Positions 16,776-33,190 of a DNA stretch of 64,000 nucleotides are shown piece by piece. Below the pieces are notes generated by a model that was not told the origin of the DNA, did no database searches, and saw only the letters and a list, made by a program, of their open reading frames with translations. Source of the stretch: Promethearchaeota archaeon. GTDB taxonomy: Archaea > Asgardarchaeota > Lokiarchaeia > Sigyniarchaeales > SOKP01. The stretch covers positions 1 through 64,000 of the forward strand of contig JAUVNS010000012.1 in NCBI GenBank assembly GCA_030599585.1, in the 5' to 3' direction. Every line of letters starts with the position of its first letter. Position 1 is the first letter of the stretch. Made by a program: the position numbers and the translations under genes.

Positions 16776-16926
16776 GGCCCCCGGCGGTCGGGGTGGTCCC
16801 AGACGCTGGGCTTCAATACCTTTACAACAGCTATAGATGAAGAAACCCAGTTATCCTGCGAAGGGATAGGGGTTCGATAAGGAAAAAGGTATCCTTTTTC
16901 CAAGAAAATCCCCCTGGGGGCCGCCA
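16776..16926 (+). tRNA. selC: tRNA-Sec(UCA) with two introns (16817-16844 at 37/38; about 16879-16908 in the T loop)
   Basis: 9-bp acceptor GGCCCCCGG/CTGGGGGCC, 7-bp D stem with TGGT loop, 6-bp anticodon stem, TCA at 16813-16815, long variable arm, 4-bp T stem, G73 and encoded CCA; 24 nt upstream of SepSecS. Confidence 0.93.
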
Positions 16927-19151: not shown

Positions 19152-19301
19152 TGGGCCATCGGGGATTTGAACCCCGGCTCTCAGGCGTCTACTGACACGA
19201 TCAATTTTATATTTCTTGTCTGATCGTGGGTCACTTATAAGACCTGCGCTTGTTGGCCACGCTTGCTACAAACGGCGTTAACCAGGCTAAGCAAATGGCC
19301 C
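19152..19301 (-). tRNA. tRNA-Ile(UAU) with two introns (D arm 21/22 at 19252-19278; anticodon arm 38/39 at 19187-19234)
   Basis: Acceptor GGGCCAT/ATGGCCC with A73, D stem GCTT/AAGC, anticodon arm CAGGT-CTTATAA-GCCTG after splicing, T arm CGGGG-TTCAAAT-CCCCG; both inserts fold into BHB-like motifs. Confidence 0.85.
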
Positions 19302-27646: not shown

Positions 27647-27746
27647 GCAGATATAGCCAAGCGGTACGGCGCTGGTCTGGAATGGTAATCTTAACCAGTA
27701 AACCAGTGTGTGAAAACACTCGAGGGTTCGAATCCCTCTATCTGCG
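27647..27746 (+). tRNA. tRNA-Ser(GGA) with an 18-nt canonical 37/38 intron (27683-27700)
   Basis: GCAGATA/TATCTGC acceptor with G73, CTGGT-CTGGAA^A-ACCAG, long variable arm, GAGGG-TTCGAAT-CCCTC; CTGG/CCAG splice helix. Confidence 0.95.
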
Positions 27747-31599: not shown

Positions 31600-32328
31600 T
31601 TACACCTCTATACTCTTTAAAAATTGTTCGTCAACCTTAATGGGATGTCCCATAGTTGTTTTCAAAAACATGGATTTAATATTATTATATCTATGGGGCA
31701 TTTGATCAGCGACATAATCCACTATAGCCTTTAAATTTTCGAAGACTCTATCTTCCTCCATTGATTTTTTCCCTATTCTTACTTGGATGAGGAGTTGTTT
31801 CTTCAGCTGAATTCTGATTATTTTTAGGTATCTCTCTATCGCTATTCTTAGATCCTCTGGACTTGATACGATACCATAACCACTTGGAAATGGTTTTGGC
31901 ATCTTCCCTAATGGTCCAAGAAACCTAGCCAAATATCGCGCTACGCTTGGCATCATTTTATCTTCGACTATAAAAAAATCGTATTTCTTCACGAATTTCT
32001 TCTTTACTTTTTTCTCTTCGTTGTTCAATTGGACTAATCCATCAGTATCAATCGTCTCTAATCCTAAGTTTCGGGCTTCTAATAGAATTTCATCTGAAGC
32101 TATTACACATACATTGGGTTTATCACTTGTTACAGTATTGTTAGGTAGTACTATTTCCTTGTCTATCCTCTGTTTAGGGTCGTTTAAATTAAGGTCTTTC
32201 AGATTAATAATTAAATCAATTGATTCGTCAAATTTCCTAACCTTATCTTTAAATCCCTCCTTTTTTATAACAGAGTGCTCGATAGCTGCGTTAATCGATT
32301 TCTTTAACAATTTATCGTCAACTTTCAT
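31600..32328 (-). CDS. rpl1: 50S ribosomal protein uL1
   Basis: RKFDESIDLIINLK, LGPLGKMP, KTTMG. Confidence 0.96.
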   Translation of the reverse strand: MKVDDKLLKKSINAAIEHSVIKKEGFKDKVRKFDESIDLIINLKDLNLNDPKQRIDKEIVLPNNTVTSDKPNVCVIASDEILLEARNLGLETIDTDGLVQLNNEEKKVKKKFVKKYDFFIVEDKMMPSVARYLARFLGPLGKMPKPFPSGYGIVSSPEDLRIAIERYLKIIRIQLKKQLLIQVRIGKKSMEEDRVFENLKAIVDYVADQMPHRYNNIKSMFLKTTMGHPIKVDEQFLKSIEV

Positions 32329-32331
32329 ATT

Positions 32332-32866
32332 TTACATCTCCCCCTGAATTTTATCATCATATTCTCCAGCGTCAATTCTTTTTTGTATATCTCTTGGATT
32401 ACTACCCTCAACTGTTGCACCAATAGAAAGAGCTGTTCCTATAACAGTTTTTACAGCGTTTTTGAAAGTTTTAGCTAAGAATATGTCCTTTTTAGCGTTT
32501 GTAACAGTAATCACCTGTTCAAGAGTTAAATCACCAGATTTCTGTTCAGAACTATTTACGCTTCCTTTTTCTATTCCCAATTCCTTCAAGAGGAGTGAAG
32601 CTGTACTTGGGGTTTCTACGAAAATCTCAAATTGCTTGGTTTCAGGATCGCACTCAATTCTAATTGGGACGGTTAATCCCTTAAAAAGCATGGTTTTTTC
32701 GTTAACGGCGTCCACTACGTCCTTAATGTTTGCATAGAAAATTGACTTAATTTTCATTTATGCCAGTAGGACCTACGGCAGGCCCAATAGGGGGACCACC
32801 ACTAGCAGCGCCGCCTGTGACTTGAGCATGTACAACCACGCGCCCTTTTTCCTTCTCTTTACTCAA
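32332..32866 (-). CDS. rpl11: 50S ribosomal protein uL11, split gene: exon 1 32866-32758, exon 2 32729-32332 (168 aa joined)
   Basis: Exon 1 (TTG 32866; alternative GTG 32875) encodes MSKEKEKGRVVVHAQVTGGAASGGPPIGPAVGPTGI. Exon 2 continues NIKDVVDAVNEKT..GLTVPI..TPSTASLLLKELG. The two parts are in different frames unless the 28-nt insert is removed. Confidence 0.92.
32730..32757 (-). other. Putative 28-nt BHB-type mRNA intron in rpl11
   Basis: ATGAAAATTAAGTCAATTTTCTATGCAA; 7-bp internal stem, 4-bp central helix GCAT/ATGC, two AAA bulges. Cutting AA^A on both sides restores GGC ATA AAC ATT AAG. Confidence 0.8.
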
Positions 32867-33190
32867 TTTATTCACTCTTTTTGTTAAATTAACTATTTAA
32901 AGCCTACATTTTAAAACGCAGAACAAATTATTTGATTCAAACCAAAATTTCCAATATCTTTAATCATATCGGAACCGTAATCGTTTACGTTCTAAGTTTT
33001 GAAAAATATAGACTTAACTTAGTAAATTGCTAAATGAAGTGAACCTAAAAAATTTTATGAAATTTCACAATTGTTGTCGATCTGAATTTATTTATCTTAT
33101 TAATGATATGATTATTTGAGAAAAAGAAAAGAGTAATTTCAGAGCCAAATCTATTCAAATTTAAGAATTTTTAAAGGTTAAGATTTAACG

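Follow-up and report, generated by a model that had tools for sequence, protein, structure and literature searches.

The gene for ribosomal protein uL11 (rpl11) of a Promethearchaeota archaeon (assembly GCA_030599585.1) is split by an insert of 28 nucleotides (nt) which, judged from its own sequence and from those of related genomes, is an intron of the bulge-helix-bulge (BHB) type in an essential ribosomal-protein gene, predicted to be mechanistically like the intron of the cbf5 pre-mRNA. The gene lies within the first 64,000 nt of contig JAUVNS010000012.1, the stretch of DNA that was analysed and that is called the window below. Removal of the intron from the RNA by the EndA/RtcB pathway appears highly likely, and the tRNA-splicing enzymes very probably need to cut the uL11 mRNA and join it again. 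The gene, the lineage and the arrangement found in relatives, a multi-intron, fast-turnover cluster of four sites, are new.

The uL11 gene is on the minus strand (32866..32332), and the insert (32757..32730) divides it into exon 1 (32758..32866), which aligns with the N-termini of orthologues and ends ...GGC AUA A, and exon 2 (32332..32729), which includes the stop codon (32334-32332). Around the split the minus strand reads ...CCT ACT GGC ATA A, then the insert, then AC ATT AAG GAC; the insert is in phase 1 and separates the two parts of an Asn codon (A/AC). In unspliced RNA the exon 1 frame meets a premature TAA (32749..32747), producing an open reading frame (ORF) of 42 amino acids (aa), while the remainder of the protein is in a different frame, a 141 aa ORF (32757..32332). 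All of this, the minus-strand sequence, the limits of the insert, the stop codon inside it and the change of frame, is exactly as described in an earlier reading made from the letters of the window (the sequence-only reading). Pfam family Ribosomal_L11_N gives two abutting matches at the locus (model positions 1-27 and 26-58), and a Pfam search of the whole genome found no further match to it, so that uL11 is single-copy and no intact second rpl11 accompanies the interrupted one. The source is a metagenome-assembled genome (MAG) of 52 contigs rated 100% complete, with an estimated contamination of 8.9%.

Once the insert is taken out, the protein reads GPTGINIKDVV across the split, the same as in intronless members of the genus (G003, G010, G056 and others). 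The predicted junction in spliced RNA is GGCAUAA/ACAUUAAG, and the uninterrupted gene of G003 reads ...GPAVGPTGINIKDVVD..., which equals that junction. The gap-free uL11 of 168 aa proposed in the sequence-only reading stands as far as the restored frame is concerned; its length holds only for a start at TTG 32866, since the alternative GTG 32875 would give 171 aa. TTG 32866 is the start that aligns with orthologues, and GAGTGA lies 6 nt upstream of it.

The insert and its flanks have the 3-4-3 BHB geometry, in which two 3 nt bulges lie on opposite strands with a helix of 4 base pairs (bp) between them (PMC5829648). The central helix joins GCAU in exon 1 (32760..32763) to AUGC in the intron (32732..32735), all on the minus strand. 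The 5′ bulge AAA (32757..32759), which is on the loop side, has its predicted cut between 32758 and 32757, and the 3′ bulge AAA (32729..32731) between 32730 and 32729. An inner hairpin (32737..32755) has 7 bp arms, GAAAAUU (32755-32749) and AAUUUUC (32743-32737), closed by the pentaloop AAGUC (32748-32744), and a U.U pair (32756/32736) sits between this stem and the central helix. The outer exon-exon helix (3′ strand 32727..32728) begins with C32728-G32764 and A32727-U32765; written outwards it is G-C, U-A, mismatch, A-U, U-A, a relaxed form. Among homologous inserts at this position (site C), its first pair is G-C or G-U in 17/17 and its second is U-A in 16/17. The central helix, AAA bulges, U.U pair and 7 bp stem of the sequence-only reading are therefore all present, but the outer pairing it claimed is weak. 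For cbf5, the documented cut separates the second bulge residue from the third (PMC2738675). Applied to the uL11 motif, this rule removes exactly 32757..32730 and leaves GGC AUA AAC AUU AAG, the junction that restores the frame.

Several observations weigh against splicing by this route. The outer helix amounts to only 2+2 bp in the source genome, the minimum-energy fold (RNAfold) favours a 5 bp GCAUA/UAUGC register with an AAU bulge together with an exon 1 hairpin, and the local fold does not significantly exceed shuffled sequence in stability (z = -1.56). A single frameshift, +1 for 28 nt introns or -1 for 29 nt introns, could formally read through site C. Translation in archaea can also begin on nascent RNA, and splicing would have to outrun the ribosomes. 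The fold of a single sequence is weak evidence, and the case consequently rests on comparison. In this window the Gly-Pro codons (GGNCCN) at 32770-32800 form a competing exon 1 hairpin.

All 42 species genomes of the genus were searched for uL11 and the loci compared, and mini-introns were found to occupy four positions within about 20 codons, in the order A, B, D and C, the last being that of the source-genome insert. Site A (GGS/AS, phase 2) holds introns of 31-38 nt in 10 genomes, other genera included; site B (PPI/G, phase 2) introns of 30-36 nt in 10 genomes; site D (PAV/G, phase 2) introns of 28-30 nt in 3 genomes; and site C (GIN/IK, phase 1) introns of 28-29 nt in 18 genomes plus G216. 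Two introns are combined in one gene as A+C (G005, G009, G020, G045 and G052), B+C (G016) or A+D (G187), and three (A+B+C) occur in G057 (L049, G057:C27) and G216 (L077:1290-1620, G216:C40). These two three-intron genes belong to different genera of the family, and their introns lie inside about 60 coding nt. Eleven members of the genus have a precisely intronless uL11. Among 251 genomes sampled across 30 families of the phylum, the N-domain of uL11 is intact in 225, and its interruption was seen only in the family of the source genome (genera g1, g12 and g16). Same-position inserts with covarying stems, which had been named as a check on the proposal, thus exist in relatives, and other relatives are intronless exactly at the predicted junction.

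For each insert, the boundary that restores the orthologous protein was compared with the cut position given by the BHB motif. The central helix is fully paired (4/4) at the frame-restoring boundary in 30/33 distinct introns from four independent sites, while neighbouring boundary pairs, which provide a local background, reach 4/4 in only 2-5%; the match to the motif is therefore far beyond chance. Three introns of genus g16, all 4/4, bring the count to 33/36. This is the scored set; three further distinct introns from G216 are outside it, making 39 in total, and all 39 break the frame or carry a stop codon. By site, the helix is 4/4 in 18/18 sequences at site C, in every intron of sites A and D, and in 6/9 at site B, the rest having 3/4. 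At sites B and D the exon-exon helices are strong, 5-7 bp long, and formed by self-complementary GGNCC Gly-Pro codons; at site B the inner side is relaxed.

Covariation was assessed in an alignment of the 18 site C sequences, 17 of them distinct. The specified structure is paired in 86.9% of cells, compared with 29-40% when the partners are slid, and the covariation score was reached by 0/500 shuffles. Both sides have changed in 5/8 pairs of the inner stem. The central helix is paired in 100% of cells across the 17 distinct homologues, where the variants GUGC and AUGU still pair through G.U.

The exons of the interrupted genes are under purifying selection, and the genes look functional. With their inserts removed, all 36 complete genes are free of stops and have 164-166 aligned residues, and the spliced proteins share the invariant segment GG(S/A/K)ASGGPPIGP(A/S/T)VGPTGINIKDVV. 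The pairwise ratio of nonsynonymous to synonymous substitution rates (dN/dS) is 0.075 between intron-bearing genes, 0.069 between intronless genes and 0.079 in mixed pairs.

The alternatives to splicing can be set against these data. Programmed frameshifting or translational bypass, by which the ribosome would read the 28 nt to give a uL11 with 9-10 additional residues, or hop over them to give a bypassed product, is very unlikely. It draws on the exon 2 frame being open through the whole insert in 16/16 distinct sequences of site C, where one shift at AUA-A/AUG could link the two frames, and on the history of the cbf5 introns, which were formerly taken for frameshifts (PMC2738675). Against this, the shift would have to be of opposite sign in sister species, +1 for inserts of 28 nt and -1 for those of 29 nt, and 9/33 introns (at sites A and B) are stopped in both relevant frames and could not be crossed by any single shift. 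Substitutions within the inserts are compensatory in the RNA stem rather than synonymous, and the added residues would interrupt the invariant GPTGINIKD motif. Direct readthrough fares no better, as 0/33 distinct introns are readable in frame and the inserts of in-frame length (30 and 36 nt) hold stops. Bypass is opposed by the position of the inserts, all four sites splitting codons (phase 1 or 2) with no matching pair of take-off and landing codons.

Equally improbable is a split or truncated product, a 42 aa N-terminal peptide plus a 141 aa uL11 devoid of the N-terminal loop, which might serve as a regulated alternative or switch. The source-genome intron does open with an ATG in the exon 2 frame, overlapping the region of the exon 1 stop, and annotation pipelines call the 141 aa ORF. 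That ATG, however, is found at the start of only 3/18 site C introns (G000, G002 and X058), introns at sites A, B and D provide no such restart, and exon 1 is under purifying selection to an equal degree; the invariant GGxASGGPPIGPAVGPTGI would be lost from the truncated protein. The naming of this ORF bears out an earlier warning that automated annotation would hide the interruption: it falls in a protein cluster of 70 members, those of 141 aa being named 'large subunit ribosomal protein L11'.

A decaying pseudogene or an assembly or sequencing artefact is less probable still: the source is a MAG with the contamination noted above and some assemblies break at the insert (G021, G046 and G216), but the gene is single-copy in a genome rated complete, its inserts have structure and are placed with single-nucleotide precision, and at least 25 genomes, assembled independently, have the same insert or homologous ones (site C-type in at least 18). 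The source-genome insert is identical in a second MAG (G002), and the exact 42 aa N-terminal ORF is present on 11 contigs (NCBI, Logan, ENA), which disfavours the assembly artefact that the sequence-only reading had advised excluding; together with the stop-free spliced genes and the dN/dS values, these findings exclude both for practical purposes. A self-splicing group I or group II intron was also considered and rejected, the insert having only 28 nt compared with a ribozyme core of hundreds of nt, and no Rfam intron family matching in the window.

The enzymes that splicing would call for are encoded in the source genome, as the sequence-only reading had supposed. Two of its genes, each of about 200 aa, belong to the EndA family, one paralogue (alpha, C24:165764..) carrying the catalytic Tyr, His and Lys, and the other (beta-like, C35:67256..) without the His, as expected of a structural beta subunit; there is one RtcB gene. 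Asgard archaea are described as having an (alpha-beta)2 EndA with an L1 loop and a broad substrate range (PMC5829648). From these genes and the motif we infer the cleavage, the ligation and the identity of the acting enzymes, as follows. The rpl11-rpl1-rpl10 transcript would fold locally, GCAU of exon 1 pairing with AUGC at the 3′ end of the intron, to form a 4 bp helix flanked by AAA bulges on opposite strands, with the 7 bp intron hairpin inside and a short exon-exon helix outside. The heteromeric (alpha-beta)2 endonuclease would then cut after the second base of each bulge, and RtcB would join the exons and probably circularise the 28 nt intron. Only the spliced mRNA would encode the 168 aa uL11; unspliced RNA would stop after 42 codons. 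The exact spliced-junction pattern had no match in metagenome contigs, a collection consisting mostly of DNA.

The closest analogue of the uL11 introns is the intron of the cbf5 pre-mRNA in Desulfurococcales and Sulfolobales (Watanabe 2002; Yoshinari 2006; Yokobori 2009, PMC2738675). The two share a short BHB-type intron inside a protein-coding sequence of an archaeon, a predicted cut that separates the second bulge residue from the third, a host whose EndA is hetero-oligomeric, (alpha-beta)2, and a patchy presence among related species, with gain and loss. The differences are that cbf5 encodes a pseudouridine synthase of Crenarchaeota whereas uL11 is a core ribosomal protein in Asgard archaea, and that in uL11 introns occur at four positions in a span of about 20 codons, with as many as three in a single gene. 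At sites A, C and D the uL11 introns have a canonical (3-4-3) BHB, while most cbf5 motifs are described as unconventional. The splicing of cbf5 has been shown experimentally; that of uL11 is deduced from comparison.

Multi-intron tRNA genes of Asgard archaea (bioRxiv 10.64898/2026.10.13.758758) resemble the present case in lineage, in having introns of about 18-50 nt at BHB motifs, and in repeated gains and a scattered distribution. The substrate in uL11 differs, being an mRNA that must stay in frame, and there is a resemblance between uL11 introns from different sites; that study did not treat protein-coding genes (apart from one unrelated mention) and found no route of intron copying. A likeness to HAC1/XBP1 splicing, suggested in the sequence-only reading, applies in part. 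Both would be non-spliceosomal, protein-catalysed cut-and-ligate reactions on mRNA, and RtcB is the XBP1 ligase, but the splice sites do not correspond. The nuclease of HAC1/XBP1 is Ire1, not the tRNA endonuclease, and its sites are 7 nt loops of twin hairpins; Ire1-type sites were accordingly rejected for uL11, where the predicted cuts are in 3 nt bulges flanking a 4 bp helix. HAC1/XBP1 splicing is moreover stress-regulated and alters the C-terminus, whereas that of uL11 would be obligatory to make the protein at all. In Haloferax volcanii, EndA is reported to process an mRNA at a BHB element (PMC7714728), again outside tRNA and rRNA; that element is in a 5′ untranslated region and the uL11 intron is inside the coding sequence.

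Within the searchable literature, cbf5 of Crenarchaeota is the one gene for which the tRNA endonuclease is documented to splice an archaeal coding sequence; according to PMC2738675 no further case had been confirmed, and searchable publications that mention both Asgard and bulge-helix-bulge do not deal with mRNA. If the uL11 intron is removed as proposed, an essential single-copy ribosomal-protein gene depends on tRNA-type splicing in the prokaryotes most closely related to eukaryotes, this lineage has interrupted protein genes and obligatory mRNA splicing without a spliceosome, and ribosome production is tied to the tRNA-splicing machinery. A practical consequence is that gene callers mis-annotate intron-bearing uL11 genes, as with the 141 aa 'L11' on record. 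The four sites, polymorphic for presence and absence, offer a compact setting in which to study how introns are gained and lost.

Turnover was examined on a maximum-likelihood tree of spliced uL11 coding sequences (36 rows, 495 columns). Genes with and without introns are interspersed on this tree, with minimum changes of 7 (A), 6 (B), 12 (C) and 1 (D), rough counts that come from a single short gene tree and that recombination could inflate. G000, with an intron at site C, is sister to the intronless G056, and G016, with introns at B and C, is sister to three intronless genes. The sequences point to rapid gain or loss between species at sites A-D. Several assemblies break in or beside the uL11 intron region (G021:C14/C167, G046:C23/C63 and G216:C161; L030, L038, L043, L044 and L080), and two of them contain both intron-free and interrupted uL11 fragments, which suggests strain-level presence/absence polymorphism of the introns within samples.

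Similarity between introns of different sites was judged against mononucleotide shuffles (200 per site pair). It is significant for B-C (z 8.3), A-D (z 7.2), C-D (z 4.2) and A-C (z 3.1), with 0/200 shuffles reaching the observed value in each, and not significant for A-B (z 0.4, 72/200) or B-D (z 0.1, 88/200). The hairpin at all four sites usually ends in a 5 nt loop NNNUC, mostly followed by G (loci L024-L049, L075-L077). With a null model as simple as this, the similarity suggests, and does not demonstrate, one intron family spread over four sites, or else a shared constraint. A genome search for more copies of the intron, as a multi-copy repeat would have, gave only chance matches of 15-17 nt.

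A possible, though doubtful, explanation is that the N-terminal Gly/Pro segment of uL11 acts as a hot spot, and that a single family of mini-introns has time and again settled at the four neighbouring sites, shifted among them and disappeared from them. The introns would then share a hairpin of 6-8 bp and a pentaloop ending in UC, usually with G next, and the self-complementary GGNCC codons would supply the exon helices, so that any insertion there would be splice-competent. These Gly-Pro codons may be the reason why the N-terminal segment collects introns. Under a hot spot, the similarity between introns of different sites would indicate RNA-level copying, for example by reverse EndA/RtcB ligation followed by reverse transcription, or by gene conversion. 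If true, the hot spot would give a natural system in which to ask how BHB introns reach archaeal genes.

The neighbours of uL11 and some other genes of the same genome may be described briefly. The minus-strand gene row in the window is rpl11-rpl1-rpl10, and the uL1 gene (31600..32328, minus strand), directly downstream of uL11 in the same operon, is uninterrupted. Five tRNA introns had been claimed for the window. Three over-long tRNA genes are present, one of them above the Rfam threshold: 27647-27746 (100 nt; Rfam tRNA, 52.6 bits), 16776-16922 (147 nt; Rfam tRNA-Sec, 35.9 bits, below threshold) and 19152-19301 (150 nt), the last known only from an ARAGORN call with a wrong model. With default settings ARAGORN detects no tRNA anywhere in the window, and a single one reaches the Rfam gathering score. 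Run on the whole genome with introns allowed, ARAGORN returned only 16 uninterrupted tRNAs, with many mis-modelled, a count of use for context only.

A genome-wide census of BHB-interrupted genes, combining motif and ORF, showed no enrichment over decoy splice offsets (843 compared with about 784; 100 compared with about 97 in the strict set); uL11 was recovered but lost in AT-rich noise, and the method was uninformative. The uS3 gene is split into ORFs of 78 aa and 186 aa by an insert of about 30 nt (L073:1785-1880, G000:C11, minus strand). No canonical 3-4-3 BHB register could be fitted to this insert, which lies between ...FELEN and PQIEVEE and has a hairpin with arms GGGGAAAA/UUUUCCC. A Pfam Prenyltransf (UppS) match spans model positions 2-219 without stops (L074, G000:C41:13434-14096).
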